Below the pieces are notes generated by a model. The model had not been told where the DNA came from. It worked only from the letters and a program-made list of their open reading frames with translations, and searched no databases. From an uncultured virus (IMG/VR IMGVR_UViG_3300025697_000015) (Duplodnaviria > Heunggongvirae > Uroviricota > Caudoviricetes): a DNA stretch of 20,000 nucleotides. The DNA is taken from IMG/VR virus record IMGVR_UViG_3300025697_000015. One strand, 5' to 3'. The position numbers and the translations under genes are program-made. This document shows, in pieces, positions 2,285-17,279 of the stretch. How positions within the stretch are numbered: the stretch's first letter is position 1; the number at the start of each line of letters is the position of its first letter.

Positions 2285-2731
2285 TTACCCTAAACTAAAT
2301 TCTTCACCTTCAACAAGAACCACATGCCTGCCTTCAGCCCACGCTAATACAACAATCGTAACTGCCTCTTGACAGTCCTGATCAACATTCGGAGCTATAT
2401 AACAGTCCGGTATTTTTGGACAAGGGAAACAAACTTTGTGGTCATACGTACCACATTCTTTTGCTGCCTGACACTCCCTGAATTTCTTAGGTATTTGTTT
2501 TAAAAGCCCGTGCGGAGCTGGCCCTATTTCGTTCATTAGAGGATTCACATAACCGTGCAGAGCATTAGAGAGATGCTCCCCGGAAACAATAGGAATCAAT
2601 TTACCCCAAGGAGTGTCTTTTAGGCAGGCTAAATCTCCCCAGATATCACCATCTAAAAGGATGGGGCGTAAGATGAGGACATGACCCCATTCCTCACTAT
2701 CAAGACTGAACCGAACTAGGTGTTCCAGCAT
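2285..2731 (-). CDS. Hypothetical protein with a Cys-rich C-terminal part
   Basis: 148 aa ORF co-oriented in the operon between the CHC2 gene and polA; C-x5-C...CFPC-x5-C cluster; no family recognised. Confidence 0.65.
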   Translation of the reverse strand: MLEHLVRFSLDSEEWGHVLILRPILLDGDIWGDLACLKDTPWGKLIPIVSGEHLSNALHGYVNPLMNEIGPAPHGLLKQIPKKFRECQAAKECGTYDHKVCFPCPKIPDCYIAPNVDQDCQEAVTIVVLAWAEGRHVVLVEGEEFSLG

Positions 2732-3332
2732 CCGAGGCCTCTTTTATTGCTTTGTGTAATCGTTCCAACATGTTTTGCATGACGGCCCGACCTTTGATTT
2801 CTGATAAAATTTCTTTTTCTACTAAATAAGCAACCTGATCTGCACCTTCCCAGAAAGCAGCTACTACCCTCATAGGGAGGGATCTGTCTTGAGTTTCCCC
2901 AGTTATCACGGATAAGAAAACTCGAAGATCATCAGCAAACGTCCGTTCCGGATATTTGAGAAGGGCTAGAATTTCTTCCTCTGGTTTCGGAGCTGTTTCG
3001 TAATCCCCTTCTTCCCATGAGATATGTGGTAAATCATATTGAGTTTCTAGTATCTTGAGAGCCTCACCGAAGTTCACACCTTCTTTGGCTTTAACTAAAT
3101 CAACAGCATCTCTACTTACACCACAGGCAAAGCAGTAAAAGGAACTGGTCTCAGGATACATACGAGCTGACGGTTTGTTGTCGTGACCATCTCCGTGTAG
3201 GTCACACGGGAACTGTTCTTCTCGGTCTTCTCCATCGGTTCTTACAGGGTAACCGTAATCAAATAGAATCTGAGCAATAGGAACCATGTCCTTGATCTGA
3301 GCTATTCGTCTTTTTGTGCGTTCATCTGCCAT
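2700..3332 (-). CDS. DnaG-type CHC2 zinc-finger protein (primase zinc-binding domain without TOPRIM)
   Basis: FPCDLHGD...KPS...FYCFACG...DAVDLV...NFGEALKIL matches the primase zf-CHC2 pattern. ATG 3332 overlaps the upstream TGA; GTG 3335 is an alternative start. Confidence 0.85.
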   Translation of the reverse strand: MADERTKRRIAQIKDMVPIAQILFDYGYPVRTDGEDREEQFPCDLHGDGHDNKPSARMYPETSSFYCFACGVSRDAVDLVKAKEGVNFGEALKILETQYDLPHISWEEGDYETAPKPEEEILALLKYPERTFADDLRVFLSVITGETQDRSLPMRVVAAFWEGADQVAYLVEKEILSEIKGRAVMQNMLERLHKAIKEASDAGTPSSVQS

Positions 3333-3946
3333 CACTTCTTTACCCGAAATTGCTTAAAAAACCGAGAAACATAGCCCTCATTGCCGACACTTTGCTTATA
3401 ACGACCTTGGGGTGTTCCATAGACTCTACCTTTTTCTCCCGGGTCAAACCACTTTTTCATTGTACCTGTTTTAGTTATACCGACTGTCTCATTCAGATAA
3501 CGGACAGGGCATCCATCCACACACTCCCATGTTTCCATGGTCTCCAAACCATTATCGTCAGTATAACTAATTTTTTGATAACCTGGAGGTTTCTGACTGA
3601 ATTGTATAGCTCCGTCTGACTGAACATTAACAGGGTTCGGACGATAACCTTCTTTAGGTTTCATTTTCTGAGAGCCTGTACTCTGACACCCGGGCTTATG
3701 TTCCAGAATGACGTTGGTAGGGAATCGACCAGCATCATGAGGTTGAGACTTCCACTCCCGCATCTCAGGGGAGCTGTTGAACATCCGATCATCTCGAACA
3801 GTAGCATTGCTGGTTCCCCAAACACCTGGACCTAATGGCCCTCTTACACGACTTGCATCAAGATTAAGCCCACCAGTACCCCATTGGACTATATTGTCCA
3901 CCACAGCCCCTTTTAAGGGCTTTCTGGCTACTGTTATAACTATCAT
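3332..3946 (-). CDS. Stand-alone methyltransferase variable-region module, copy 1 (long type, 204 aa)
   Basis: MIVITVARKP...WGTGGLNLDASRV...GRFPTNVILEH...WECVDGCPV...SRFFKQ, matching the internal segment of phage N6/N4 methylases; no DPPY or FxGxG motif. Confidence 0.85.
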   Translation of the reverse strand: MIVITVARKPLKGAVVDNIVQWGTGGLNLDASRVRGPLGPGVWGTSNATVRDDRMFNSSPEMREWKSQPHDAGRFPTNVILEHKPGCQSTGSQKMKPKEGYRPNPVNVQSDGAIQFSQKPPGYQKISYTDDNGLETMETWECVDGCPVRYLNETVGITKTGTMKKWFDPGEKGRVYGTPQGRYKQSVGNEGYVSRFFKQFRVKK

Positions 3947-4389
3947 TCTTTAACCTGCTTGAAGAAACGAGAAGCTCCTCCTGAATCCGCATAAACAGGA
4001 CTCGTTACGGCATTTGTTCGCCCGAGTGTAACTGCACCGTGGTTTTTTTTCCAAAGATATTGTTTTCCTGCTTTCCCACCACTTGTTAAAATACCACTTT
4101 GTACGTCAAGTTGCCGTACAGGACAGTTATCAACACATTCAGGATTATGTTCAAAAATGACGTTAGCAGGGAATCGGCCAGAGGGTTGTGGTTTCACCTG
4201 AAATTTACTTTTCTTTTCTTTACCCACAGATGTAAAGCAATCCTCATTTGTATAATGTCTGATATCATATTCACCGGGGTTACTTGCAATACGACATTCA
4301 CCAATGTTGAGTCCACCCGTACCCCATTGTTGGATGTTATCTACTACAGTCCCTGTGATAGGTTTTCTTGCTACAGTGATAACAATCAT
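3943..4389 (-). CDS. Stand-alone methyltransferase variable-region module, copy 2 (short type, 148 aa)
   Basis: MIVITVARKP...WGTGGLNIGECRI...GRFPANVIFEH...CPVRQLD...DSGGASRFFKQVKE; ATGA-coupled at both ends. Confidence 0.85.
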   Translation of the reverse strand: MIVITVARKPITGTVVDNIQQWGTGGLNIGECRIASNPGEYDIRHYTNEDCFTSVGKEKKSKFQVKPQPSGRFPANVIFEHNPECVDNCPVRQLDVQSGILTSGGKAGKQYLWKKNHGAVTLGRTNAVTSPVYADSGGASRFFKQVKE

Positions 4390-4634
4390 GATGTGATTAT
4401 TTCATCCAATACTTTTTGTGATTGTACGATCTTATTCTTGTAATACTTAATAATCTCCTGTTCAGCTACAGTAAGGGCTGATTTTGTTTTTTTTACCTTT
4501 AACTGCATGGAAACCTCAGAGTACTTTGTACCAAGCCACCAATTATCCCCCCGACTGATCCTGTACAGTTCCCAGGATTCAGTATCAAGGCTTACCTTGT
4601 ATTCATTATCACTTATCTTTTTCCAGTTAATCAT
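4386..4634 (-). CDS. Hypothetical protein
   Basis: Start reassigned to ATG 4634 (MINWKK), which overlaps the upstream TGA; its own stop overlaps the next ATG. Confidence 0.65.
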   Translation of the reverse strand: MINWKKISDNEYKVSLDTESWELYRISRGDNWWLGTKYSEVSMQLKVKKTKSALTVAEQEIIKYYKNKIVQSQKVLDEIITS

Positions 4635-4909
4635 TGGCCACACTTAGTGTAGATTTCCTCACAGGTATCTATAGCTTTCAAGCACTGAGGATTTAAAGAA
4701 TGCCCTTTTTCCTGAGTCTCTATACAGAAAACCGTACAGGTTGTTCCGTCTGGGAGATCTTCTCCTTCGGGACAACTAAGCATTTTCAATCTGTCACAAG
4801 CATTCTGACACGATGAAGTACCGGGCGGTTCGATGGGTATCGGCGGCATAGTCTTGCAAGATACTCCTGACAACATAACGACCATTATCAAAATAAATAG
4901 TTTTCTCAT
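4631..4909 (-). CDS. Small Cys-rich putative lipoprotein or secreted protein
   Basis: From ATG 4909 (ATGA overlap, GGAGG upstream): MRKLFILIMVVMLSGVSC signal with a lipobox-like Cys, a Pro-rich linker, then 8 further Cys. Confidence 0.7.
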   Translation of the reverse strand: MRKLFILIMVVMLSGVSCKTMPPIPIEPPGTSSCQNACDRLKMLSCPEGEDLPDGTTCTVFCIETQEKGHSLNPQCLKAIDTCEEIYTKCGQ

Positions 4910-5682
4910 TTCACTTCCTCCCAAGGAGCTGTAAGTACCCAGATGTCGGCGGTCTCACCCCATTTGATGTAATCTTCATCCATTAAGTAGAAACCGTCAT
5001 CACCCCAATGGCTACCCCAGCTATTCTCACCAATGAACTTACCGTTTTCATACCCGACCAAGCAGGTTGCATGACGGCCTGTGATAGCATCAGGCTTGGA
5101 TAATACTTCTCCAAGCTTGTATTGATTCCAGTTTTTACCAACGGCTGTCCCGAATACGACCGGGTTTCCGTTGTTCAAAGCTTGAATGATACTCTCTACT
5201 CGGTTGTCCCCAGAGGATTTGATTCGATAAAAAGCAGCTATCTTGTGCTGATAAGCTTTCCTCATAGCCATCCACGATGGAGTCTGGTTGACTCTCAGGG
5301 TGTTGAAAGGCCAATCTTTCTCAGGGCAGACTCCCCAACGTCTGAGGACATCACAAGCTAATGAGATATAAGTGCCAGCATCTAAACCCGTTGTCTGAGG
5401 GAGCTGGAGTTCTCTGGCCAGATAATAGACGGCCAGAATGGATAAATCCACATGGGCATCACGACCATATTCTTTGATCCGTTTTAATTCCAGAGCCTTG
5501 ACCACAGCATGAGCAACACAAGAACTTGTCCAGCGTTGGTTCTGCACAGGACTAGAGAACTCACGGAGATTTACATCTTCCGTACCATCTTCTAATCGGC
5601 CTTTTAAGGCAGCCTCAAAACTCCATTGTCCGTCTTTCATAGGTTCTGGCATATAACCGTCAAGTTTGATTCCGTCAGTCAT
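4906..5682 (-). CDS. Papain-family (C1) cysteine peptidase
   Basis: NLREFSSPVQNQRWTSSCVAHA (oxyanion Gln and catalytic Cys), GRHATCLVGY (His), ENSWGSHWGDDGFY (Asn). Start ATG 5682 has SD GAAAGGAG and a TAATG overlap. Confidence 0.93.
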   Translation of the reverse strand: MTDGIKLDGYMPEPMKDGQWSFEAALKGRLEDGTEDVNLREFSSPVQNQRWTSSCVAHAVVKALELKRIKEYGRDAHVDLSILAVYYLARELQLPQTTGLDAGTYISLACDVLRRWGVCPEKDWPFNTLRVNQTPSWMAMRKAYQHKIAAFYRIKSSGDNRVESIIQALNNGNPVVFGTAVGKNWNQYKLGEVLSKPDAITGRHATCLVGYENGKFIGENSWGSHWGDDGFYLMDEDYIKWGETADIWVLTAPWEEVK

Positions 5683-5960
5683 TAATCGTTCTCCTTTCTC
5701 ATGTCTAGTGTCTTCGTCCATCTGACTCGTTCCCCATTCTCATGTTCAGTGTCTTCGTCCAGAATCCCAATCTCAATCATCTGGTTAAGGATTGGGTAAA
5801 CCAGCTCACTTAGAGGATTATTAGTTTCTATAAGATGTCGGAATTTTTGATACCTCTCAGGGGTGTCGTCCGTAGCCAAACCCATCACCACCATAATGTA
5901 AAAAGCAGCACTCTCCAGAGACTGCCAATCTTCTAAATATTGTTTCAAAGTTTTTTTCAT
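5682..5960 (-). CDS. Hypothetical protein
   Basis: Start reassigned to ATG 5960 (MKKTLKQY), overlapping the TGA of the C5 methylase gene. Confidence 0.65.
   Translation of the reverse strand: MKKTLKQYLEDWQSLESAAFYIMVVMGLATDDTPERYQKFRHLIETNNPLSELVYPILNQMIEIGILDEDTEHENGERVRWTKTLDMRKEND
5686..5761. repeat. Imperfect direct repeat, two 35-nt copies with a 41-nt period
   Basis: 5686-5720 tcgttctcctttctcatgtctagtgtcttcgtcca versus 5727-5761 tcgttccccattctcatgttcagtgtcttcgtcca; 31/35 identical. Confidence 0.85.
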
Positions 5961-8737
5961 AGCTCCATACCTTTCATTATATGTGTAATAACATCTATAG
6001 TCCAACCGTTTCCAAGCATCCGGCATCTTTGTGATCTTGAAGCTGGGGACGTATATCCTCGTGGGACGGTTTGTAAAGCTTCACATTCTTCCGGGGTTAA
6101 TAGCCGATACTGAGTTTTATCTTCATTGAAAACCCCAATCCCTCTAGTCTTCCCCCCAGCTTCGGCTCTCAAACATTTAGCTTTCCCTTCCGGGCTGGAA
6201 GGAGTGTCTGCTTTATATGGGAATTCCTCTGTCTTTCTCCATAATGCTTTGTCAATGATCTTATTGTCTAAGAGAGAAGTGGTAAGGCAATTTGCTTTCC
6301 CATCAGTCCTAGGGAGTTGGACTTTAGCTTGGAACGGAGTATAATCAGTACCGTGTGTAGCTTGATGTTCTTTCCGTATCCTTTTCCCTTCTTCACTTCG
6401 AGCAGGTCTCAAGACCACTGGTTCTTTTAACTGGTTATCTTCCAAAATATCTTGAAGAAGGATTCCTTTGTCTTCGGGCTGATCAATAAAACTCCCAATA
6501 ACGTAATCACCTTCACCTGGAATATTTGTCCAGTATAAACGGGAACGATTCTGAGCTGATACAAGGTTGGAATTGATTCGAGCACAGCTTACACCTAACA
6601 GCTCAGTGATAGCATACTCATACTCTCGTTTCATCTTGACGTTCTCTAACAAGAAGTATTTAGGTTTGCATTCTCGGAGCAATCGAACGAACTCAAAGAA
6701 CAACATACTCCGAGGGTCTTTGAAATTCAACTGCTTCCCAGCAAAACTGAACCCCTGACAATTATGTACTATATGGTTATTAGCCACATAGGAGTTATCT
6801 TTACCCACCTCAAGGTTATAAACGGTATCTACTACCCCTATATTTTTTATTTTCTTCACTGGATTCCATACTACATCCTCAATGACCCAAGCACGAGATT
6901 GTTTTGTATGGTATTTCCTGTAAGTTATTGTATATGTGTTTTGTTGGTTTACAACACGTCCTTCAATGATGGTCTTTGCAGGTCTAACTGTATACTCGAT
7001 AGAACAAGTTGTCCTATATACTTTTGCTACTGCTAATGCTAAAGTTTCTACCAGACTCTTGGAAATTGTTGTGGTCCTATAGGTTTCTCTTCTACAACTA
7101 CCATCTGCAAAAAGATAACCCTCCAGAACTTTCTCTAATAAAGGTTTTGGTAAATCCAACAGCATTTTAGACAGATATTTGTTTTTAGCCCCTACCCCAC
7201 AATGTTTCTCCGCTATTTTCACTAGGTGTTTACTGGAAAAAACAGCCCTGTAAACACTTTTGGTATGTTCGTAAAAAGAATGTTTTAGTTTTATATTCTT
7301 CTTAAATGAAACCTTTTCGTGTTTCCCTACCGATATAATTAACTGCCAATGTCTATCATTAGGTCGGTTTTCTGAGGTCCTGTAGTCTTTTCTCGTATGT
7401 CCATCTCCTATATAAAGCCCTAATAAATAACATTCATCAGAAGACAAGTTTAAAGGGTTTTTTTCAGTTCTCAAGATCGGTGTCCCAATATAATCACCAA
7501 TTTTTATATCACAAACCTCTACCCATTCAGGATCACTAAAAACCCATTCATAAGTTCTTTTATTGTTATTCCATAATTTTTTTCGTGTTCTGACATAATA
7601 GGGGTGATTGGCTGTAGTTGTAGTTTCAGTGGCCCCTTGACTTAATAAAGTGCATAATGGCTTACTATCATTACCTATTCTTATAATTTTCTTGTAACGA
7701 CCTTTATGAGTTAACACCTTATTACCAACACAAATGTCTTCAATTGACCGAATACCCTTTTCACAAATGATTTTTGTACCAGCCACAAAACATGGAGAAC
7801 CACCTATCAAGAGATCAATCTGAGGCAAGTCTTTAGCAAATACCTGTGTGACATCACCCAGTTGAATTGTGTCGGGATAGTTATGCATAGTAACGGCCAT
7901 AGAATGTTTATCAATCTCACTGGCAAAGTATTTATCATATTTAATGCCCAGTCGGTTAAGAGCTATTTGCCCGCAGCTCATCCCGTCAAATAAAGATAAT
8001 ACATTAATTCCTTTTTCCAATTTAGACTCCTGTTTTATCTGTTTGAAATATCGGGAAGCCCCGCCTAAATCACCGTAGCCCGGGTCTCCTTTCACATCAT
8101 CAGCTAAAAGATCCTGCCCCAAACCTTTCCCACCACCATAGATTTTAGAAGTAGTAGAGATATTAGCAGTTCGGCCACCAGAAGATAAAGAGTTGCCACT
8201 CTGTACGTCAATCTGCCGTACAGGACAATCACCCACACACTCCCAAGATTCAACGGATTCCTGACCTGATTCGTCACCGAACCCAACGGTATAGCTGACA
8301 CCCTTCACACCAATCCCTACACCACGACCCCAGATGTGGCCATGTTGTTCTCCAGATTGGATACGTTCTTCTACAGGGAGTTTATCAACATTGACTTGCG
8401 GAAAACCTTTGATCTTGGCCAGACCTAAAGAGACACAGTCAGGGTTATGTTCCAAAATAATATTGGCAGGGAATCTACCCATCAATGAATGTCGTTTGAT
8501 ATCTTCCTTCATCATTTCAGCATGACGTTTGGCATCTTCAGAACGATGCATCCACGGCTGACTCCAATGACTCTGTTTCTTGTCAATAGTTTCAGGCCGT
8601 TCGTCCCCACCACCCAACCATTCCCCTGTTGGGGTTATTCGGCAAGCATCAATGTTGATGCAGCCTGTCCCGTTCTTCTGGATGTTGCTCACCAGTGTCT
8701 TCGGGAAAGGTTTTCGGGCTACGGTAATAACTATCAT
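5957..8737 (-). CDS. C5 cytosine DNA methyltransferase with an intein and an N-terminal fused variable module (copy 3, about 8030-8737)
   Basis: Motif I LSLFDGMSCG, IV GGSP|CQGFS split by the intein, VI LLENV, VIII AQNRSRLYW, IX RLLTPEECEALQ, X LGNGWT. The N-terminal ~236 aa are MIVITVARKP...GGASRYFKQ. Confidence 0.93.
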   Translation of the reverse strand: MIVITVARKPFPKTLVSNIQKNGTGCINIDACRITPTGEWLGGGDERPETIDKKQSHWSQPWMHRSEDAKRHAEMMKEDIKRHSLMGRFPANIILEHNPDCVSLGLAKIKGFPQVNVDKLPVEERIQSGEQHGHIWGRGVGIGVKGVSYTVGFGDESGQESVESWECVGDCPVRQIDVQSGNSLSSGGRTANISTTSKIYGGGKGLGQDLLADDVKGDPGYGDLGGASRYFKQIKQESKLEKGINVLSLFDGMSCGQIALNRLGIKYDKYFASEIDKHSMAVTMHNYPDTIQLGDVTQVFAKDLPQIDLLIGGSPCFVAGTKIICEKGIRSIEDICVGNKVLTHKGRYKKIIRIGNDSKPLCTLLSQGATETTTTANHPYYVRTRKKLWNNNKRTYEWVFSDPEWVEVCDIKIGDYIGTPILRTEKNPLNLSSDECYLLGLYIGDGHTRKDYRTSENRPNDRHWQLIISVGKHEKVSFKKNIKLKHSFYEHTKSVYRAVFSSKHLVKIAEKHCGVGAKNKYLSKMLLDLPKPLLEKVLEGYLFADGSCRRETYRTTTISKSLVETLALAVAKVYRTTCSIEYTVRPAKTIIEGRVVNQQNTYTITYRKYHTKQSRAWVIEDVVWNPVKKIKNIGVVDTVYNLEVGKDNSYVANNHIVHNCQGFSFAGKQLNFKDPRSMLFFEFVRLLRECKPKYFLLENVKMKREYEYAITELLGVSCARINSNLVSAQNRSRLYWTNIPGEGDYVIGSFIDQPEDKGILLQDILEDNQLKEPVVLRPARSEEGKRIRKEHQATHGTDYTPFQAKVQLPRTDGKANCLTTSLLDNKIIDKALWRKTEEFPYKADTPSSPEGKAKCLRAEAGGKTRGIGVFNEDKTQYRLLTPEECEALQTVPRGYTSPASRSQRCRMLGNGWTIDVITHIMKGMEL
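6761..7792 (-). mobile_element. Intein (344 aa) with a LAGLIDADG homing endonuclease, inserted in the catalytic PC motif of the C5 methylase
   Basis: Begins CFVAGTKI, block B TTANHPYY, endonuclease motifs LLGLYIGDG and LEGYLFADG, ends VYNLEV...HIVHN followed by +1 Cys. Confidence 0.95.
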
Positions 8738-9193
8738 TCTTTTACCTGCTTGAAGAATCTGGAAGGTTTGTTAGGTTCAGTCACATGCCAGCCTTTCTCA
8801 GGTTGAGAAGGTATCCCATCAATGAATTCTCCACCTGACCGTTGGTAACTCATGTGTCGGACTATGTTCTTTGTAACTGAAGACTGTTTATCCATTGCTG
8901 CTACAGCATTTTGACCCAAAATCACATTAGAAGGCCAACGGCCAGCAGGGTTAATCTTGATGTCACCGTCTTTTTTCTGAATTTGGAAAGCTGCCCCACG
9001 GTCTGAACCATGCTTGAATGAATATCCTTGTTGTGTTCGAAACAATGGATTTGATGCTACGTTAGGGGTGTCTTCATATCCGATACGGCAGGCATCAATA
9101 TTGAGTCCACAAGTACCCCATTGGACTATGTTTCCCACCACAGAACCTGAAATAGGTTTTCGGGCTACGGTAATAACTATCATTCTTTTACCT
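8708..9193. repeat. Exact 40-bp direct repeat at module start junctions (8708-8747 and 9154-9193); related junction at 3936-3966
   Basis: aggttttcgggctacggtaataactatcattcttttacct is present twice; 3936-3966 matches 8727-8757 at 30/31 nt. Confidence 0.9.
8734..9183 (-). CDS. Stand-alone methyltransferase variable-region module, copy 4 (short type, 149 aa)
   Basis: MIVITVARKP...WGTCGLNIDACRI...GRWPSNVIL...SRFFKQVKE; lacks the His/Cys cluster of the other copies. Confidence 0.85.
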   Translation of the reverse strand: MIVITVARKPISGSVVGNIVQWGTCGLNIDACRIGYEDTPNVASNPLFRTQQGYSFKHGSDRGAAFQIQKKDGDIKINPAGRWPSNVILGQNAVAAMDKQSSVTKNIVRHMSYQRSGGEFIDGIPSQPEKGWHVTEPNKPSRFFKQVKE

Positions 9194-10190
9194 ATGAATC
9201 AATTATTTCAAAAACACTTAAATCCTCTGGGTCTCCCCACGGAACTTTTAACAAGTCTAAGACTTTACCACCACCCATCTTTTGAGTGATGAAAGCCCAT
9301 TGTTTTGGGTGAGTCTTTTTCATTTTCTCAAACCTGTTTGGGTATTTCTCCATATGAGCACCAAACATACAAAACATGCAACCTGTCCGGGATACTCCGG
9401 TCAATGAAAGCTTCCCTGTATCATCTTTAACTATATTACCATAGACACTGGACATCTTTAACTTATTATCCAGAAGGTATTGCAATATATCTTGCTCTGT
9501 CCAAGCCATTAATGGCCGAGACATCGGGTTCTTCATATTATAAGCATTACACCCAAACCTTTTCCAAGATAGTTCTCGGTCTTTACTCTCTGTTGCTGTG
9601 ACTCCGACATAAGGATACTGTCCCGTTTCCTTAATATGCTTATGTAAAGGTGCTTTCTTCATAACATGACAGCAACGGTGATTTATCTTCAGGTTTCCAG
9701 CTCGAACCTCATCTACTAAATACAACCACTTGTTAGGTATTTTGCCCAAGGATAAATACTCACCCTTGCTTGTCATTCCTGTTAAGCGGAGGGTGTGGGT
9801 AGCCGAACCAATAGAACCACACCCAGCCTCATGGATATACTGAGCATTCCGTTTAGATACAGCTGGCCATCCATACTTCTTAACAACTTCTTGAAAGTTC
9901 ATCTTAGGTTTGAGGACAATTACATTCTCTGTTTCTCTGGCAAACCTCCTGATTTCAGGGTATTCTAATCCTGTGTCACAAAATACTGCCGGAGTGTTAG
10001 GATACAACTGACGAACCAGATGAAGTAGGACGGAGGAATCTTTACCTCCTGAATACGACACTGATACTTTACCTTGGTGGTGTTCGTACCAACTTCTAAT
10101 CCGGCTAAGACTCATTTGAATTTTAAGATCCAATGGGTAACCAGACCGGGTTTTCATTTGCCACTCTTCTAAAGCATTCTCTGGGTTCAT
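9192..10190 (-). CDS. PAPS reductase family (PP-loop) protein
   Basis: VSYSGGKDS PP-loop, FCDTGLEYPE, RCCHVMKKAP, SRPLMAWTEQD, RTGCMFC (CC plus CxxC, putative Fe-S ligands). Confidence 0.92.
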   Translation of the reverse strand: MNPENALEEWQMKTRSGYPLDLKIQMSLSRIRSWYEHHQGKVSVSYSGGKDSSVLLHLVRQLYPNTPAVFCDTGLEYPEIRRFARETENVIVLKPKMNFQEVVKKYGWPAVSKRNAQYIHEAGCGSIGSATHTLRLTGMTSKGEYLSLGKIPNKWLYLVDEVRAGNLKINHRCCHVMKKAPLHKHIKETGQYPYVGVTATESKDRELSWKRFGCNAYNMKNPMSRPLMAWTEQDILQYLLDNKLKMSSVYGNIVKDDTGKLSLTGVSRTGCMFCMFGAHMEKYPNRFEKMKKTHPKQWAFITQKMGGGKVLDLLKVPWGDPEDLSVFEIIDS

Positions 10191-10555
10191 TTTTCATAAA
10201 CCCTTTTTTCAGGGATAACTCCCCGAATACCACCCACAGGGTCAGGGACATCACCTAAAAACCTTGGGATGACGTGTAAATGAATATGAGGTACAGTCTG
10301 TCCAGCAGCATATCCCAAATTCCATCCAACATTTACCCCATCTACGTTTACAAGATTTTTTATTTCCAACTGAGCCAGCTCTAAAATATCCCTCATCTCA
10401 TCACTTGTGATATCCGAAAACTCCTCAACATGTCGAATGGGAACAATCAGCCTATGGCCTTTATTCACAGGATATCCATCAAATAAACAAGCTGCAAGAC
10501 CCTGTGTTTTTTCAAATCTAAGTTCATTACAAAACGGGCATTGTTTCTCTGCCAT
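10187..10555 (-). CDS. HIT family nucleotide hydrolase
   Basis: CPFC, YPVNKGHRLIVPIRH, NVGWNLGYAAGQTVPHIHLHVIPR histidine triad. Confidence 0.95.
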   Translation of the reverse strand: MAEKQCPFCNELRFEKTQGLAACLFDGYPVNKGHRLIVPIRHVEEFSDITSDEMRDILELAQLEIKNLVNVDGVNVGWNLGYAAGQTVPHIHLHVIPRFLGDVPDPVGGIRGVIPEKRVYEK

Positions 10556-10557
10556 CT

Positions 10558-11394
10558 TTAACTCTCCTTCTGTTGAATATCTACTCTCTGCACACGGTTG
10601 TCCTTATCTGCACCGATAAAATATATCTTATTATCAGGGATATCAGCAGTTTCAATATGAGCACCCCAAAGGGAGTTTCCACCAAGGTCAATATACTGGT
10701 CATCGTCCTCAGATTTAACAACCAAGCCGTGAAAGAGAGTCCCACGAGTTTTCTCAGAAACAAGAAGAGTAGAAACACTATCTGTACCAATGGCTGCAAA
10801 AGCATCAACCATAAGTTCTCGTGTCAAAGGACCTCGGAAAGGTTTCCCTGTCCAACCATCAATTCGTGCCATCGTTGCATCATTGGCAGGAAACAACCCA
10901 AACACGTTTAGGAACTCTTGGAACTGCCAGTCCTTCTCATCAACCCACTGATCTTCTTTCCCTTGCTGTTTCATTCGGGCTTGTATTGTGGTGTAACAAC
11001 TGGAAACAACATTGAAAGGAGTGAGTTTAGGGTTTTCTTCACCCGTGTCCTTAAAAGCATTAGATGCTTTTTGAAGAAATTCCTGTGCTGAAATATAATC
11101 AGGGGCACCATGTTTCATGACCCGAAAGCCGTACTCTAGTCCTTCTTGGTACTGGTAAGGTTGCATATTTACTTTCAGGAGCAGGAAAACTTTATCAACA
11201 CCCAAAGACAGGAGCGGTCTCATAGCCGTAGAGATTGAGATGGGGTCATTTGCTCGGTCTTTTGCCCACGGCATCAAAGCCAAAAGTTTCTCCTCAGATT
11301 CTCCAGGGTATTTTGGGTGACCGACGATTTCATCTTTGATGGTCAACATACGGTTGAACGTCGTCCAATGTCCCATTGTTACAAGTCTTTTCAT
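10558..11394 (-). CDS. Hypothetical protein
   Basis: Long co-oriented ORF; start reassigned to ATG 11394 (SD GGAGGAG, ATGA overlap). Confidence 0.75.
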   Translation of the reverse strand: MKRLVTMGHWTTFNRMLTIKDEIVGHPKYPGESEEKLLALMPWAKDRANDPISISTAMRPLLSLGVDKVFLLLKVNMQPYQYQEGLEYGFRVMKHGAPDYISAQEFLQKASNAFKDTGEENPKLTPFNVVSSCYTTIQARMKQQGKEDQWVDEKDWQFQEFLNVFGLFPANDATMARIDGWTGKPFRGPLTRELMVDAFAAIGTDSVSTLLVSEKTRGTLFHGLVVKSEDDDQYIDLGGNSLWGAHIETADIPDNKIYFIGADKDNRVQRVDIQQKES

Positions 11395-11849
11395 TTCCTG
11401 TCTCCTCCCCTGCAATATTTCCTTTTTACGTGATATAATTTCGTAACAAGAGCTTCTCTTCTACCAGGACTCTGAAGAGAGTGTCCAAAAGAATAGTCGT
11501 CAAAATCAATACGTTTTAGAGCTTTAAGACCTTCTGTGGTATTCCATCCTCGTCCTTGGGCTAAAACCAAAGAAACTGAAATAGTTGTCCCACCTACTTT
11601 GAACCCTAACAAGCGGTCCAGAGGGTTATCGTTTAACGTAACTTTCTTCCCAGCATCGTGAGCATCAGCCAATTTGTTAATCCACTCTGCCATCGTTTTG
11701 CATATCAGCTCAGAACCCTCATTCAGATATTTGACATATTCTGCCAACTGATGTCTGGCTATTTCCTCGGTATTAAAAGGTCCAATAATATCCGACCAAT
11801 TCTCATCGGAAAAAAACCATTGGCCATCTTTTTCAATTATAGGATCCAT
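11391..11849 (-). CDS. Hypothetical protein; N-terminus resembles a DUF6316-like motif
   Basis: MDPIIEKDGQWFF...IGPFNTEEIARHQLAEY; start inferred from similarity to the neighbouring gene. The family resemblance is from memory only. Confidence 0.65.
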   Translation of the reverse strand: MDPIIEKDGQWFFSDENWSDIIGPFNTEEIARHQLAEYVKYLNEGSELICKTMAEWINKLADAHDAGKKVTLNDNPLDRLLGFKVGGTTISVSLVLAQGRGWNTTEGLKALKRIDFDDYSFGHSLQSPGRREALVTKLYHVKRKYCRGGDRK

Positions 11850-11854
11850 TACTG

Positions 11855-12103
11855 TTACCCCCATAAAGGTATATTTACTTTCCCACAACTATCACAAGTA
11901 CCTCTACAAATAAGAGCTTCCCAGATTTTCGATGATTTTTTATAAGCACACTCCCGACAAACTTTTTCAGGAGTAACTATTCTTTGAGTCTCTGGCTCTG
12001 TTTCTACAGTATGCTCCGCCAGACGATTAGTTGCAACATTTTCCGTTAGGAAAGGACCACATCTGAAAAACCATTCTCCGTTTTCTTCAAACACTTTGTT
12101 CAT
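11855..12103 (-). CDS. Small hypothetical protein with a paralogous N-terminus and a C-terminal CxxC..CxxxCxxC cluster
   Basis: MNKVFEENGEWFFRCGPFLTENVATNRLAEH; ATG 12103 overlaps the methylase TGA, SD GGGAGG. Confidence 0.65.
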   Translation of the reverse strand: MNKVFEENGEWFFRCGPFLTENVATNRLAEHTVETEPETQRIVTPEKVCRECAYKKSSKIWEALICRGTCDSCGKVNIPLWG

Positions 12104-12981
12104 TCTGGTTTCCTCCCTACCACTATTATTTCCCAAGCGGGCTTGAGTGCCGTCCCATAGCCTTCAAACTTCTTGGCAATATCCGAAGTAGGTAAGGTCA
12201 GTGGTATTTGAATATTGACTTGTTTTACCCCTGCCCCATAAGCTCCACACCCTTTGGCAGAAAGACTATCACCTTTGCCTGGTCGGGATTGATTGTTGAC
12301 ATTATCCCCACCTTTACCTGTTGTAGTTCCTATTACTTGTGGTTCAACTCCAATTTTCTTATCCAAAGCCTTTGATATGTTTAATGACTTCGGAAATCCA
12401 GATCCGTATATCCAGGCATCCATATGAATTTCTACAAAGCCTGCCTGTTCCATAGCTGCTGCCAACCGGTGGTAAGTGCGGGTGCCACCGAAAGCTTTTA
12501 GGACACCTCCAGGTTTCAATACCCTGAAGGCTTCCACCAACCAATTCAGATGCCAAGCCTGTTGAGTGTGTATATTGTCCAAGGAGATGTTTAAGGCTGC
12601 GTCTGCACCGTCTCCTACAGGTTCACCAGCCACAACCCATTCTGGTTCGTCACAGGTACATTTCTTAGCCCCTCTTAGACGGCCACCACAGGCTTTACAT
12701 GTTGGATTGGCTCCACCGAAAGGTTGAGTTCCTCCTAAAGAAGGCCATTCAATCTCACGTTGGCCAATACCAGGTTTACTCATCCCTGCCCCTGACTTCC
12801 ATTCATCAAGGTTATCCCATTTCTTGTTCATAAAGGATAAGCTAAGTTAGCCATAGGGCGGATCACAAACAATACTTCCAATACTGCCTTCAGCAAAAGA
12901 TTGCATTTTTTCTTTGCAATCTCCCATGAGCAATTGAAGTGTTTGTGGAACCACCCTACGGGGGTTCTGTTTCCTTTTCAT
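12100..12981 (-). CDS. N-terminal (DPPY catalytic) half of a beta-class N6/N4 DNA methyltransferase; in-frame TAA at 12847-12849 (split, recoded or pseudogene)
   Basis: From ATG 12981: MKRKQNPRRVVPQTLQLLMGDCKEKMQSFAEGSIGSIVCDPPYG*LSLSFMNKKWD, in frame with ORF 12100-12831, which has RVLKPGG, RTYHRLA, WIYGSGFPKS and GTALKPAWEIIVVGRKPE*. No FxGxG motif. Confidence 0.85.
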
Positions 12982-12997
12982 TATTTCATCCTATCTC

Positions 12998-13039
12998 TTG
13001 ACAATAAAACCTAGTCCATGATACAGTATCACAGGAGGT
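12998..13039 (+). promoter_or_regulatory. Sigma70-type promoter and SD for the endonuclease gene
   Basis: TTGACA 12998-13003, 18-nt spacer, extended -10 TGn-TACAGT 13019-13027, AGGAGGT 13033-13039, ATG 13046. Confidence 0.7.
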
Positions 13040-13045
13040 TTAATA

Positions 13046-13789
13046 ATGCAAACTAGAACATGCCCGATATGTAAAAAAACCTATCAAGCTGATCCTAAAC
13101 GTCTTAAACACGGAAGACAAACCACATGCTCCCGTAAATGCTCGTATAAATTCCGAGCCCAACAACTTAAAAAATCTAAATCTTACACCTGTGTTATCTG
13201 TGGAACTGTTTTTGAACGCCCTCCCTCGACAGCTAAAAAAGCTGATGCAGGACTTCCTTTGTGTTCCAAAGAATGCCATTATAAAGCACGTACACAAGGT
13301 CTGTCTCCACGTCCTATCTGCGGCCCCTATCAACCACCCCCACCAACTCCTACTCCTGTCTTGACTAATGGTTTCGGACATTGGTTGGCAGGTTTCATTG
13401 CCGGAGAAGGGTGTTTTCGAATCCACAAAGTTCGAAAAGGTGCATATTTCGGTTGTGCCTTCTCGTTGAAACTTCGAGATGATGACACCCCTATTTTGAC
13501 TGAGATTGTCAATAAACTCCAACTTGGTAGATTGAAACCTGACAGATCGAGAAATGGGAATAGTAAGCCTTGTATGGTTTGGATAGTAGATACTAAAGCC
13601 GACTGTCCTACCTTGGTTAGTATTATCGACCAATACCCTATTAGGGCTAAGAAAGCTAATGATTTCCGTATTTGGAAAAAGGCTGTTCATTTGTGGACAT
13701 CCTTTAAACCAGGGAAAAGTGTGTGGGTTCGTATGGGACAGATGAAAAAGGAAATAGAAGATGTTCGTACATACAAGCCCCCAACATAA
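13046..13789 (+). CDS. Single-motif LAGLIDADG homing endonuclease with two N-terminal zinc-finger repeats
   Basis: CPIC...CSRKC and CVIC...CSKEC repeats, PPPPTPTP linker, WLAGFIAGEGCF, FSLKLRDDD, YPIRAKKANDFRIWKKAV. It is the only credible + strand gene. Confidence 0.9.
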   Translation: MQTRTCPICKKTYQADPKRLKHGRQTTCSRKCSYKFRAQQLKKSKSYTCVICGTVFERPPSTAKKADAGLPLCSKECHYKARTQGLSPRPICGPYQPPPPTPTPVLTNGFGHWLAGFIAGEGCFRIHKVRKGAYFGCAFSLKLRDDDTPILTEIVNKLQLGRLKPDRSRNGNSKPCMVWIVDTKADCPTLVSIIDQYPIRAKKANDFRIWKKAVHLWTSFKPGKSVWVRMGQMKKEIEDVRTYKPPT

Positions 13790-13817
13790 TGGAGTGTTTG
13801 TGGAACTGGGTTCTGTT

Positions 13818-14114
13818 TCATCTTTTCACCTTAGTTACCTTCATCTGGTAATCTCCGATATTTACCTCTTTGATTGTTACATCAAGCATCTCTTGGGTAA
13901 ATGTCTCAGCATTTGACTTTTCCATAATATTAAGGACTACGAGCATAGCAGCTTTCAGACGAATTAGATCTTTACCTGATGCATCGTAAGGAGCTTTGTT
14001 ATACTGGCATATTTTAACAGCAGAATCTTTAACAGCATTACCAATAGATTCAGAACTCCAGTCCAGAAAAGATAAATCTTTTCTCTCTTTATCAGTGGTT
14101 AAAAGTTTAGACAT
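13818..14114 (-). CDS. Hypothetical protein
   Basis: 98 aa co-oriented ORF with AAAGGA upstream. Confidence 0.65.
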   Translation of the reverse strand: MSKLLTTDKERKDLSFLDWSSESIGNAVKDSAVKICQYNKAPYDASGKDLIRLKAAMLVVLNIMEKSNAETFTQEMLDVTIKEVNIGDYQMKVTKVKR

Positions 14115-14117
14115 TTA

Positions 14118-14315
14118 TCAATCCTTTTCTCCCACGGCTTCGGCCACGGCTTCTGATATCCAATCGGATAGTTCTTCACCTTCCCAAGTTTGTTGAAAAA
14201 TAGGATAACCACAACATATAGGCATCGATGCGGTACTGTCACTCTGAGGTAACAATGCTGCCTCATCCTCAGTCCATTTTTGCCCACAGAAGGCACATAG
14301 ATAATAGTGGGTCAT
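14118..14315 (-). CDS. Small putative zinc-ribbon protein
   Basis: YLCAFCG...PICCG, acidic tail, ATGA overlap with the upstream gene. Confidence 0.6.
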   Translation of the reverse strand: MTHYYLCAFCGQKWTEDEAALLPQSDSTASMPICCGYPIFQQTWEGEELSDWISEAVAEAVGEKD

Positions 14316-14554
14316 TCATTTACCTTATAATTAAAACCATCATAAATAATTGTTTGATGGAGTGTTTGTTCCAATTCTTTCTGAACCTCCGAGGCTAATG
14401 GGTCAAGGAGTCTTGATATAACCCTGCTAAGTCCTGTCTCCCAACCTTCTTGGGTTTGCATCCTTATCAAAGATGTTGTATCGATGGCCACATTCTTGTT
14501 GATGCCAATTTCAATAATGCCATCTGTTATTTGTACTGTAATGCTATTTTTCAT
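14312..14554 (-). CDS. Hypothetical protein
   Basis: 80 aa ORF, ATGA-coupled on both sides. Confidence 0.6.
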   Translation of the reverse strand: MKNSITVQITDGIIEIGINKNVAIDTTSLIRMQTQEGWETGLSRVISRLLDPLASEVQKELEQTLHQTIIYDGFNYKVNE

Positions 14555-15036
14555 TCGTTGTCACCTTTTTCCAAGAAATCCACAGTGTTTAAAAGGATTG
14601 TGGCCAGAGGTTCTTCGATCCCGTGCTTGGGAAACAGAACTTCTATCATTCCTTTTCTGACATCAGTGCCTTTGGCTCCAGATACAGCCACCCAATCACA
14701 GACCATCTCAATTATATCAATCAAATGCATCCCTGCAACTCCGTCCTTGAAATGCTCAGGATGATGTCTGTTGTTTTCATAATGGTGTTTAAGAGCAGGA
14801 CCCAGTTCTTTTATGATCGTTCTGGCCTCTGGTGATCCAAATGGTAGCCCTTTGACTTTAGGAATAACCTCGGCGTATGTTGAGAATTCCTCATCACTAC
14901 TCTTGGATAGATCATGAGTAGCCTGACGATGTTCTATCTCATCAGATACAATCTGCATTTGTTCAAAAACATCCGTCCGATGAATCATGATTTCAGTGTT
15001 ATAATCAGTTTCTGCTTGAGTTAATTTTTTTGTCAT
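14551..15036 (-). CDS. DUF5662-like, HD-related putative phosphohydrolase
   Basis: HDLSK, HHYENNRHHPEH, DIIEMVCDW; SD AGGAGG. Confidence 0.8.
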   Translation of the reverse strand: MTKKLTQAETDYNTEIMIHRTDVFEQMQIVSDEIEHRQATHDLSKSSDEEFSTYAEVIPKVKGLPFGSPEARTIIKELGPALKHHYENNRHHPEHFKDGVAGMHLIDIIEMVCDWVAVSGAKGTDVRKGMIEVLFPKHGIEEPLATILLNTVDFLEKGDNE

Positions 15037-15080
15037 GTTATCCTCCTACATCAACAACCCACGGACAGGGAAAACTAAGC

Positions 15081-17279
15081 TTAATCTTCCATATCCCACA
15101 AATCCACAGGTTCTTTTTCTTCGGTTTCGGATTTGAAATCTGAAACCACTTCTCTATTTATATACCCCTGTTCACTATCCCAGTGACGAATTCGGGAAGT
15201 AGCAATACCAACATAATCTTTTTCTCTATCAGTCCCAATAAAATCATGGCCAGTATGGAGACACGCAATCCCAGTTGAGCCGCTGCCCATAAACGGGTCC
15301 ATTACTGGACCATTATCCACAGGAATACCATCCAATAAACATTCCATCAACTTAATAGGCTTAACCGTATTATGGCTCATTCCTACAACGGTTTGAAAAG
15401 TTGGTGACCCTTCTACAGTCAAATTGACAACGACCCCAGTATAACTAACAGATTTGATTTCTTTAACATATCGAAGAAGGTATGTTTGGCCTTGATACTC
15501 GATATAAGTAGGACGTGAGTTTTTACGGTCAACCCGTTTCTGATTTTGACTATAAAAATATAAATGGTAAGTTGGTAGTGTAGTCTTAAATTTTCGATCT
15601 CCAATACCCTTACCCATTAAGGGGTCATATCTGAACAAATTAGTCCGATACCCTATAGAATCTCCTAATAAAGCCATCAAGGAAGCAAGATCAGGAGAAA
15701 CCGTTTTAGCTTGTTTGTATAAACGGCCTTTTACTTGACAACCATCTCCTGCCAAATACCCATCCAAAATTGCTTTTTTAATTGAAACATTAGCTACAAG
15801 TAAGTCAGGAGCTAATGTTTTAGTATCTGCATGTTGACCCCCATACAAATCAAACATCTGCCCTATTTTGGGATTAAAAGCTATTAATTGAACTGCTTTA
15901 CTTCGAGATTTTGGATAAACCCCAACATTCACACCAGTATTTTCAAAATATTTTTGTACTCTTTTAATTAGTTGGGGTTTATCAAGACCCAATGAATACG
16001 AAGGATATCTGTTAGATCCATGTCCTGCCTGTTGAAGAACCCCATCAGCTAAATACAATCCAAACATAAACCAAAGTTCAATATCATCAGGATATATCAC
16101 ATCAGTAGAAAATGAATTACATAAAGGAGTCATGGTATAATCCCCTTTTTTAATATCTTTTGCCTCAATCCAAGAAGCACAACCTCCTACAATGGAATTC
16201 CGTTTTCGTTCAGGTCTCCATATTAAATAGGGGTGGTTATCTGAAGAGGGGGCCGAATAATTAGTCCCATGAACACCAATGTCATACAGGTGACTAGAAG
16301 TGTAAAGGTGACGGCTAACATCCTTTACAATATGAAATCCCCCATCAGCACTAAACACCTGATCTCCAATTTTTATTTCACCTATAGGACGATAACCTCT
16401 TATAGTCATCACTAATGTATCAGGGTGTAAACAAGGATGGAAGTTCTTAATAGCCCCTGCTCGTGGACTATCTAAACCATCAGACCCCTCTTTACGCCCT
16501 ACAGCCTCAGCACCACTTACAGAAACTGTTTGACAGCCTGCTTCACGTTCTGAACGTGAAGCTTTGGGAACATAATGGAAATGACCTGCTTCTCTGATCC
16601 ATAGGATAGCATCACGAATTTCAAAGCCTGCATCCTCAACCCTACAAGTTCCAGTATGCCCTGTTGGTTCTGACTCTGGGGCAATCAGTAAAAGATGAGC
16701 ACCAGGCATTAAAACTCTTTTCAGATCTGCTGCTTGTTCCTCAGTCGGTTGCCCATAAGCTACAAGCCCTGGATATGAATTATCTTTTTCTTCCCCGACC
16801 TTCCAGGTACTGATGTCATCGTTGTAAAGAGCTTTCATATCAGGAGTAGAGATCATCGTTAAGAGGTAATCTAAAAGTTCTTGTGGGATATTCATAAACT
16901 CATCTTCCTTTAAGCATTTAAAAAATCGTGAAGCACCACCTGAATCATTATAATAGTCAGGGTTGTGATCGAAAGCTTCAAAGTGAAAAGTATTACCTTT
17001 TTTCGTGGTCGAAGCCTTCTTCTTATTACCCGCAGCATGGATACCTGCTTCAAGGCTGTCAATATCCAGTTGTTTCACTGGACAACTTGATATACAATAC
17101 CCAGATCGACACTCTTTAGGGTGACTCAAAATAACATTAGCAGGCCAACGACCTCCAGGATTCTGCTGGTCTTCCCCAATCCTACACCCATCGATGTTTA
17201 AAGCTCCTGTACCCAATATAGCACAGTTCATCGGGGTGGTCTTAATCAATGGGGTTCTACCAACAGTTATAACTCTCAT
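15081..17279 (-). CDS. Rearranged N6/N4 DNA methyltransferase subunit: variable module (copy 5, about 16905-17279), degenerate catalytic region and SAM-binding half, with an intein
   Basis: MRVITVGRTP...GGASRFFK; RVLMPGAHLL and EDAGFEIRDAILW but no DPPY; YVPKASRSERE; NFHP|TVKP split by the intein; motif I VMDPFMGSGSTG. Confidence 0.88.
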   Translation of the reverse strand: MRVITVGRTPLIKTTPMNCAILGTGALNIDGCRIGEDQQNPGGRWPANVILSHPKECRSGYCISSCPVKQLDIDSLEAGIHAAGNKKKASTTKKGNTFHFEAFDHNPDYYNDSGGASRFFKCLKEDEFMNIPQELLDYLLTMISTPDMKALYNDDISTWKVGEEKDNSYPGLVAYGQPTEEQAADLKRVLMPGAHLLLIAPESEPTGHTGTCRVEDAGFEIRDAILWIREAGHFHYVPKASRSEREAGCQTVSVSGAEAVGRKEGSDGLDSPRAGAIKNFHPCLHPDTLVMTIRGYRPIGEIKIGDQVFSADGGFHIVKDVSRHLYTSSHLYDIGVHGTNYSAPSSDNHPYLIWRPERKRNSIVGGCASWIEAKDIKKGDYTMTPLCNSFSTDVIYPDDIELWFMFGLYLADGVLQQAGHGSNRYPSYSLGLDKPQLIKRVQKYFENTGVNVGVYPKSRSKAVQLIAFNPKIGQMFDLYGGQHADTKTLAPDLLVANVSIKKAILDGYLAGDGCQVKGRLYKQAKTVSPDLASLMALLGDSIGYRTNLFRYDPLMGKGIGDRKFKTTLPTYHLYFYSQNQKRVDRKNSRPTYIEYQGQTYLLRYVKEIKSVSYTGVVVNLTVEGSPTFQTVVGMSHNTVKPIKLMECLLDGIPVDNGPVMDPFMGSGSTGIACLHTGHDFIGTDREKDYVGIATSRIRHWDSEQGYINREVVSDFKSETEEKEPVDLWDMED
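15369..16433 (-). mobile_element. Intein (355 aa) with a LAGLIDADG homing endonuclease, in the HP|TVKP motif
   Basis: Begins CLHPDTLV, block B SSDNHPYL, motifs MFGLYLADG and LDGYLAGDG, ends VVNLTVEG...MSHN followed by +1 Thr. Confidence 0.94.

Follow-up and report, generated by a model that had tools for sequence, protein, structure and literature searches.

The DNA examined here, hereafter the window, is a stretch of 20,000 nucleotides from an uncultured virus of the Caudoviricetes (IMG/VR record IMGVR_UViG_3300025697_000015), in which five paralogous protein modules accompany the dispersed pieces of what is probably a beta-class amino DNA methyltransferase. The gene content of the window is that of a phage replication region, and its long open reading frames (ORFs) are tightly packed, use the standard code and lie on the minus strand, with a single exception, an endonuclease gene on the plus strand at 13046-13789. 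The five modules, with lengths in amino acids (aa), are as follows.

3332-3946, minus strand: module 1, a free 204-aa ORF with all three variable regions; E-value 1.6e-59
3943-4389, minus strand: module 2, a free 148-aa ORF without variable region 2
8030-8737, minus strand: module 3, residues 1-236 of the 926-aa ORF 5957-8737, fused in frame to a C5 cytosine DNA methylase
8734-9183, minus strand: module 4, a free 149-aa ORF
16905-17279, minus strand: module 5, residues 1-125 of the 732-aa ORF 15081-17279, without variable region 1

The alignment of the modules spans 264 columns, of which 22 are invariant (M1, V3-V6, R8, P10, G73-R74, P76, N78 and S194-R195-F197-K198 among them), and a profile built from 97 stand-alone homologues recovers all five over the whole ORF with E-values of 4.6e-26 to 1.6e-59, which places their relationship far beyond chance. 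Five paralogous modules in a common frame had been claimed at these coordinates in a preliminary description of the sequence, and the alignment and profile confirm them; comparison of the variable regions likewise bears out that the inserts between the anchors are unrelated among the paralogues. The frame comprises an opening strand, GTGGLNIDxCRI, GRWPAN, a His/Cys cluster and SRFFK, and accommodates up to three variable regions. That the modules are freed subunits holds for the three that are free ORFs, but not for module 3, joined to the C5 methylase, or module 5, joined to the S-adenosylmethionine (SAM)-binding part of the amino methyltransferase; the fusion of module 3 to a C5 methylase is also present in the related loci L003 and L004 (80-81% identity). 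Module 2 is 99% identical to the public protein P0001. Modules 1, 2 and 4 matched no Pfam family at E<=0.01 and thus are not members of the HsdS family (Methylase_S), while the only PHROG matched by the modules is 3008, 'DNA methyltransferase', and a search of PDB sequences with the module profile returned only a chance match (E 0.28).

Module starts are tied to the genes ahead of them. The ATG of module 1 overlaps the stop of module 2 (ATGA), and the starts of modules 2 and 5 likewise overlap the stops of an upstream 85-aa ORF and of the DnaB-like helicase gene, respectively. An overlap with a TGA, in the form ATGA or GTGA, was seen at each of the 18 module starts examined; in 17 cases an ORF upstream, whether related or not, is open to that TGA, the exception being module 4. 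The latter is preceded by a 12-nt remnant, GTAAAAGAATGA (window 9184-9195), which is identical to the tail of another module and is best read as the footprint of a cassette insertion or duplication. Some modules carry a Cys-rich C-terminal tail, CGxxYYKHPxDGxxPFLNVLCNGxRxKL, after or instead of SRFFK (L002 10597-11148, L004 9998-10741, P0004, P0005, P0006, P0020 and P0034). At the module junctions it was also observed that GTAAAAGAATGA repeats the last codons and the stop/start overlap found ahead of module 3, and that the gene upstream of module 4 stops 12 nt earlier than a GTAAAAGAATGA-type overlap.

The catalytic N-terminal half (N-half) of the enzyme lies between the modules, beside the endonuclease gene.

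12847-12981, minus strand: N-half piece 1, a 44-aa ORF ending in motif IV, DPPYG, and then TAA
12841-12849, minus strand: 9-nt insert TAACTTAGC, immediately after the DPPYG codons, starting with the in-frame TAA
12100-12831, minus strand: N-half piece 2, 243 aa, with a Cys4 insert and the ending KPAWEIIVVGRKPE
13046-13789, plus strand: homing endonuclease gene, LAGLIDADG (PF00961, 1.4e-14), with an N-terminal Cys-rich domain

A single gene with DPPY and the ending KPAWEIIVVGRKPE had been described; both features are present, but on two separate ORFs of the same frame, the 44-aa ORF and then the 243-aa ORF, with TAA after DPPYG. The beta-class motif IV, (D/N/S)PP(Y/F/W), occurs as DPPYG in ORF 12847-12981, and piece 2 matches PHROG 6025 and scores 22.6 bits with PF01555, below the cut-off of 26.7. 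The intact relative L003 reads uninterrupted DPPYGLSFMNKEWD, with no TAACTTAGC after the Gly codon, and the TAA of the window is identical in contigs of four other sequencing runs from other samples and studies. The homing endonuclease gene is free-standing, 65 nt upstream of the DPPY ORF and on the opposite strand.

A pattern scan of viral contigs gave 57 loci, six of which belong to the module-associated N-half family (L020/L076, L049, L070, L030, L001/L048 and L004/L032) and, with the window, make seven cases. In all seven a stop-led insert directly follows DPPYG, with lengths of 5, 5, 6, 9, 11, 12 and 12 nt, and the reading frame is shifted in three of the seven. Six of the seven inserts are followed by a second Gly codon and (L/I)(E/S)F-ATG, so that Gly codons stand on both of their sides, identical codons being found only in L048 and L070; the window junction reads GGC, then AGC, and has no landing Gly codon. 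A homing-endonuclease-like gene adjoins the insert in five of the seven loci. The enzymes of the window and L070 are of the LAGLIDADG type, those of L020/L076 and L049 share the N-terminal Cys-rich domain of the window enzyme and have a different nuclease domain, and L001 has an HNH and DUF559-like gene downstream. RNA folding of the seven junctions and one intact control yielded no structure that stands out against shuffled sequences, the z-scores of the junctions ranging from -0.83 to +2.05. The stop-bearing insert may be crossed by a short ribosomal hop, and re-initiation at the conserved Met, yielding two polypeptides, is no less likely. In-frame DPPYG-TGA-(L/I)GTTACKWD at eight other loci (L025, L027, L033, L040, L045, L051, L062 and L065) belongs to another methylase family and was set aside as a separate matter; this TGA is probably read as Trp, since natural relatives have DPPYGW.

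The SAM-binding part of the enzyme belongs to a longer protein, here called the scaffold (ORF 15081-17279, 732 aa), and an intein interrupts it as well as the C5 methylase; a slash marks the intein junctions.

16557-16895, minus strand: eroded methylase-like domain without DPPY, starting at an internal Met after AAGGAAG
15369-16433, minus strand: intein with LAGLIDADG-like domain (Hint_2, LAGLIDADG_3), 355 residues between HP and TVKP
15081-15368, minus strand: true C-terminal half (C-half) past the intein, with TVKP (motif X), DPFMGSG (motif I) and further strands; PF01555, 4.5e-15
5957-8029, minus strand: C5 cytosine methylase part, PF00145, 3.2e-37, interrupted by an intein
6761-7792, minus strand: C5 methylase intein at PC/Q (Intein_splicing, Hint_2)

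Besides module 5, the scaffold ORF holds YVPKAS..ER, HP/TVKP and DPFMGSG, and its motifs I and X match PF01555 with 56.6 bits against the cut-off of 26.7. These motifs are present as had been described, but the 355-residue intein splits HP from TVKP, and the gene is not the plain C-half for which it had been taken, as it carries module 5 and an extra domain of about 110 residues ahead of the true C-half. This eroded domain resembles the N-half stretch LKPGG...AGFEIRD..W and has GQPT at the place of motif IV. The DPPY gene had also been described as stopping at the strand with which each module starts; since the strands at both boundaries are duplicated, the division is not a clean cut. Translation could begin at the internal Met129 of the scaffold, behind AAGGAAG. 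Both inteins have Cys1, a His-Asn end, Cys or Thr as the next residue, and a conserved catalytic motif of the host protein at the insertion site, their junctions being GGSP/C...VHN/CQGF in the C5 methylase and FHP/C...SHN/TVKP in the scaffold; the L002 helicase also bears an intein. The one-polypeptide order of motifs IV..VIII, variable region, X and I does not occur in the window, whose motifs are distributed among at least four ORFs; along the strand the scaffold gene comes first, then the N-half and then the modules. In an AlphaFold model, the intein-free L003 scaffold orthologue (405 aa, predicted local distance difference test (pLDDT) 77.6, predicted template-modelling score 0.68) resembles Rossmann methyltransferases at residues 147-260 (2pwy_B: Z 6.3, root-mean-square deviation (rmsd) 4.0, 110 aligned) and the CcrM C-half at residues 264-380 (Z 5.9, rmsd 2.6, 86 aligned), to which RsrI and M.BceJIV also align. 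Full-length Foldseek superpositions of the scaffold model have an rmsd of about 20 A, and hence only per-domain alignments were used.

The same boundaries recur across the family. Module 2, searched against proteins of 81-259 aa, has 152 relatives; of the best 120 of these, 97 have [A/L]RKP within the first 20 residues and an SRFF-type motif within the last 20, a typical stand-alone module starting M-IVITVARKP and ending GGASRFFKQ. With a stand-alone N-half as the query 3262 relatives were found, of which 104 of the best 120 end ...KPAWEPxxVGRK(P), and a module stands at the N-terminus of 65 scaffolds among the best 120 of 332 relatives of the SAM-binding part. Among the matches listed, module-less scaffolds mostly begin M..IPQ(D/E)L.DYL.T.ISPP, and the linker of fused scaffolds often has a Met at this IPQ(D/E)L start point. 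The module profile, searched over 1.84 billion representative proteins, matched 17012 at E<=0.001, 13641 at 1e-10 and 3055 at 1e-30; among the best 150 of the 17012, 66 are shorter than 380 aa, most of them 200-230 aa long with a single whole-protein match. In the Atlas feature matches 29 of 30 clusters have no common Pfam family, and the clusters among the matches listed are annotated as viral 'hypothetical protein'. Stand-alone modules can therefore be regarded as a large viral family. In PHROGs the N-half family 6025 is separate from the module-plus-C-half family 3008, so the two-piece form exists among the phage genomes of that collection. The module corresponds to what lies between motifs VIII and X in single-chain relatives, and the claim that modules match an internal segment of such methylases is upheld by the span of PHROG 3008 and by 14 single-chain loci with an internal module. 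A scan of genome contigs gave 10 loci, all on contigs of uncultured metagenome-assembled genomes (MAGs) and none in cultured hosts.

Co-occurrence of the pieces was assessed in the fetched stretches of ten other contigs whose modules are not part of single chains. A stand-alone N-half is present in eight of them (L001, L002, L003, L004, L020, L021, the contig of L079/81/82, and L084) and is missing from the fetched stretches of L080 and L085, both short contigs, and a scaffold is present in six (L001, L002, L003, L021, L081 and L084). Thus, the proposal that stand-alone copies with the same boundaries should accompany the other two parts in other phages has been borne out. The 536-kb contig G005, rated complete, carries five consecutive free modules besides one N-half and one module-scaffold fusion, the same N-half:scaffold:module ratio as the window. 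In L002 six N-halves, six modules and one scaffold all lie between helicase and primase, the synteny of the window, and a MAG contig carries at least nine modules with six N-halves and one scaffold, often in the order N-half then module; these gene pairs hint that a module perhaps also serves an N-half directly. Tandem modules also occur within single chains, in the orders (N, N-half; m, module; C, C-half) N-m-m-C in P0365, N-m-m-m-m-C in P0363 and m-m-m-scaffold in P0362. In these proteins (two to four modules, within P0362-P0445; P0365, P0368 and P0362) the units are linked as ...SRFFKxxxxx-LKPxHEPIxxARKP..., which makes them possible multispecific amino-methyltransferases and shows that several modules per core are a regular state of the module family.

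A check on anchor selection had been proposed. Over 94 ungapped anchor codons of the five window modules, nonsynonymous divergence (pN) is 0.25-0.45 and synonymous divergence (pS) 0.57-0.85, and the modules are evidently old paralogues with anchors under purifying selection. Module 3 has 80% and 81% whole-length identity to its counterparts in L003 and L004, and module 5 has 72% identity to that in L003. Orthologues therefore keep their variable regions, with 72-81% identity through them, while paralogues are unrelated there. P0002 is chimeric, with variable region 1 from the module 2 type and variable region 2 from the module 1 type, and P0032/P0041 are nearly identical to module 1 except for a replaced central block. 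Orthologues, paralogues and chimeras together indicate a conserved frame in which three variable regions recombine independently, a behaviour that would be expected of target-recognition parts. The module anchors are 60-80% alike at the DNA level over 109 nt. Contigs of four other runs, which drop rare variants and in which short-sided joints (side 20-30) were attributed to repeats or other organisms and left aside, show no exchange between modules and the same module order, the only well-supported joint in them being an indel from 8740 to 10604 in a relative. In this related strain (run X4) 8740 is joined to 10604 with 21 other letters between, and module 4, the PAPS-reductase-like gene and the HIT gene (8741-10603) are missing.

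Docking of the pieces was modelled in one three-chain prediction with natural proteins of L002, all separately encoded: the N-half, the scaffold from residue 141 to 449, and, as the partner, a module. Each chain was given an alignment built by the analyst. The complex scored 0.89 against 0.45 for the best control, and this mark is reached by 116 of 157 solved complexes and by 2 of 215 mismatched pairs. At least 80% of contacts are shared between the prediction runs, and the pLDDT of the partner is at least 62. In the model, module residues 1-12 lie along the two strands of the eroded domain (scaffold residues 69-76 and 95-103), the module tail contacts the N-terminal helix of the scaffold, and the module contacts N-half residues 117-139 and 184-201. 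The multimer check that had been suggested is thereby passed with respect to its controls, but the result may reflect likeness of fold.

The remaining window genes include the following.

2-2263, minus strand: family A DNA polymerase
2700-3335, minus strand: primase zinc finger
17276-18913, minus strand: DnaB-like helicase

Further products are a 3'-phosphoadenosine 5'-phosphosulfate (PAPS)-reductase-like protein, an HIT protein and a papain-like protease. The PAPS-reductase/PP-loop protein and the HIT protein lie between the modules and the N-half (window 9192-10555), and the pair may have an additional DNA or nucleotide modification function. Two 35-nt direct repeats, 89% alike and 41 nt apart (window 5686-5761), are situated at the overlap of ORFs 4906-5721 and 5682-6026, where they encode DEDT(E/R)HE(N/K)GER as the C-terminus of one product and the N-terminus of the following one. 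Neither Rfam at gathering thresholds nor ARAGORN detected any RNA family or tRNA in the window, respectively, which gives no sign of introns or suppressor tRNAs there. Megablast of the whole window against phage records gave no match at the DNA level. The stretch is present in contigs of 17 sequencing runs, 16 labelled as salt lake metagenomes and one as marine, with half or more of its words in nine of the 17, and proteins identical to modules 1 and 4 are located on contigs of up to 402 kb.

We consider it fairly probable that the window encodes a beta-class amino DNA methyltransferase in separate pieces, whose swappable recognition modules provide multi-site protection against restriction; the earlier interpretation as a split methylase is thus partly supported. 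The pieces would be the DPPY N-half, a scaffold consisting of the eroded domain and the true C-half (HPTVKP, FxGSG), and five modules, each made up of a beta-strand (IVITVARKP), anchors with up to three variable regions, and a closing strand (SRFFK). By the logic of the fold, the N-half would pair with the true C-half and form the active site, or active protomer, while the eroded domain and a module would form the recognition protomer, the first strand of the module slotting between the two strands of the eroded domain and the module also contacting the N-half. Such an assembly would resemble asymmetric beta-class dimers, whose two protomers divide DNA recognition and methylation between them, and exchange of the module would direct methylation to a different target sequence. 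With five modules, one N-half and one scaffold, the window has several units per catalytic core; if different modules mean different targets, one core would protect phage DNA against several host restriction enzymes. A bolder version, which we put forward tentatively, is a combinatorial methyltransferase whose core and scaffold sample free modules that dock in the manner of donor-strand complementation. The module genes carried would set the repertoire and be swapped at the anchors, homing endonucleases would keep the gene set in pieces, and the stop would perhaps be hopped.

Several points weigh against the modular methyltransferase. Because module 5 is a covalent part of the scaffold, it should occupy the docking site preferentially, and free modules would have to compete with it there. 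The N-half retains its own copy of the strand, so the strand of a module is not needed there, and the sole DPPY gene of the window is interrupted, so that the active piece is perhaps poorly made or made in two chains. A third control of the complex prediction, with the scaffold replaced, still scored 0.45. The fold is like that of solved single-chain enzymes and the alignments were our own, and therefore the pass may indicate likeness and not binding, and may stem from the solved folds themselves. The variable regions have pLDDT values below 50 in the model, and module 4 is without the conserved His/Cys anchor. N-halves and scaffolds were counted in the window and not in the whole genome, and the runs listed as containing the stretch are 17 DNA runs and no RNA run. 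Finally, a decayed module is found in L004 (7943-8086, a 48-aa fragment) and G004 (33148-33499), with two internal TGA stops, which suggests module turnover.

Modules that are real, selected subunits might still be fixed accessories or adaptors, which tether a partner such as the C5 methylase, or stabilise, regulate or inhibit the enzyme. The stable fusion of module 3 to a C5 methylase in three phages fits such a role, as do the lack of an evident free docking site with module 5 on the scaffold, and the variable N-halves of L002, which are as numerous as its modules and could place specificity elsewhere. We nevertheless judge adaptors unlikely, because variable regions are kept in orthologues, unrelated in paralogues and recombined at the anchors, because the position of the segment is that of target recognition in the beta class, and because modules occur in tandem within single-chain enzymes. 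It is highly improbable that the region is wreckage, in which homing endonucleases and inteins broke one or more ordinary methylase genes whose fragments are now decaying. Open frames in five of five window modules, a pN well under pS, identical boundaries in most homologues among the matches listed, starts coupled to upstream stops, and the absence of differences over the N-half junction in contigs from four other runs all speak against decay, even if two inteins and a free endonuclease gene lie in the region, the DPPY gene has an in-frame stop, and the L004/G004 module has decayed.

The pieces could also be rejoined at expression by ribosomal bypass, frameshifting, RNA splicing or protein trans-splicing. 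Since the modules follow unrelated genes such as the helicase and the 85-aa ORF, read-through would give nonsense fusions, even though module starts do overlap stops; moreover, no intron family was detected, module N-termini begin M-I-V without split-intein halves, and the boundary strand is duplicated rather than shared. The DPPYG junction alone offers some encouragement, in that its stop-led inserts are flanked by two Gly codons in six of seven cases, as in T4 gene 60, yet no junction fold stands out from shuffled sequences in the seven loci and the window junction is without a landing Gly codon. Rejoining is accordingly very unlikely in our view. We give almost no credence to the modules being silent DNA cassettes awaiting recombination into an expression site in the style of shufflons or phase-variable hsdS genes. 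Conservation of the anchors in the DNA itself and the evolutionary shuffling of variable regions would suit such cassettes, but all copies are in direct orientation with their own starts and no inverted repeats, and contigs of four runs have the same order, with an indel as the only supported joint.

The modular methyltransferase has relatives among known systems. Gp95 of Mycobacterium phage TeardropMSU, a 406-aa 'DNA methylase' (PF01555), shares the motifs and their order and has the module within the chain; module 4 matches it in tblastn over 97% of the module with 34% identity. Unlike the window, such single-chain enzymes are one polypeptide with single boundary strands, one module and no eroded second domain. 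The C5 methyltransferases of Bacillus phages SPR, phi3T and rho11s have tandem target-recognising domains in one chain. They are like the window in serving one core with several recognition units, a layout shared by the N-m-m-C relatives, and differ in their C5 class and single chain, whereas the window enzyme is of the amino class and its modules are also free genes. In type I systems, HsdM and HsdS are encoded by coupled adjacent genes, HsdS being a separate specificity subunit with recombining recognition domains; the HsdM methylase is gamma-class, and one S subunit with two domains sits in a fixed M2S1 complex. The modules resemble HsdS as a separate unit with translational coupling and recombination of putative recognition regions. 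M.AquI is a naturally split C5 methyltransferase of two polypeptides, and is thus also a DNA methylase in pieces, but with two pieces, of C5 type, and no family of alternative pieces. In phage T4, the 50-nt insert of the gene 60 bypass element adjoins the mobA homing endonuclease gene. The DPPYG inserts are similarly stop-led, placed after a Gly codon in a conserved gene and beside a homing endonuclease gene; they differ in being 5-12 nt long instead of 50, in having no hairpin that stands out and, in the window, no landing Gly codon, and the DPPYG gene, unlike gene 60, may be made as two chains.

PMC7544214 reports that beta-class enzymes form dimers, with one protomer of M.EcoP15I recognising DNA and the other methylating it, a division of labour that it also describes for CcrM, and that the partner has an eroded motif IV in MettL3-MettL14 and MTA1-MTA9. 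Set beside that account, the extra scaffold domain without DPPY is like MettL14, although M.EcoP15I, CcrM, MettL3-MettL14 and MTA1-MTA9 are all built from two whole chains, whereas three or four chains with an exchangeable recognition part are proposed here. Gene fragmentation by introns and inteins is described for Jug phages in PMC12880540, the main text of which contains 'methyltransferase', 'methylase' and 'methylation' zero times each. In the literature searched, which included sections of PMC7824862 and did not extend to subscription journals or REBASE, neither free recognition modules nor a three-part beta-class methylase is described. Split methylases, trans-acting specificity subunits and multispecific phage methylases are thus the known kinds nearby, and the free-module beta-class arrangement is a variant not described in that literature.

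If the modules set the target, the beta class, which spans enzymes from those of phages to MettL3-MettL14, would include a natural plug-in system for methylation specificity. The arrangement would then account for the thousands of small viral proteins that metagenomes list as 'hypothetical proteins' or 'partial methylases', would allow the restriction arms races between phages and hosts to be read directly from gene content, and would offer small parts for programmable methylation. The recurring stop-bearing insert provides a second, independent setting in which to consider how such scars are tolerated, by gene splitting or by bypass.

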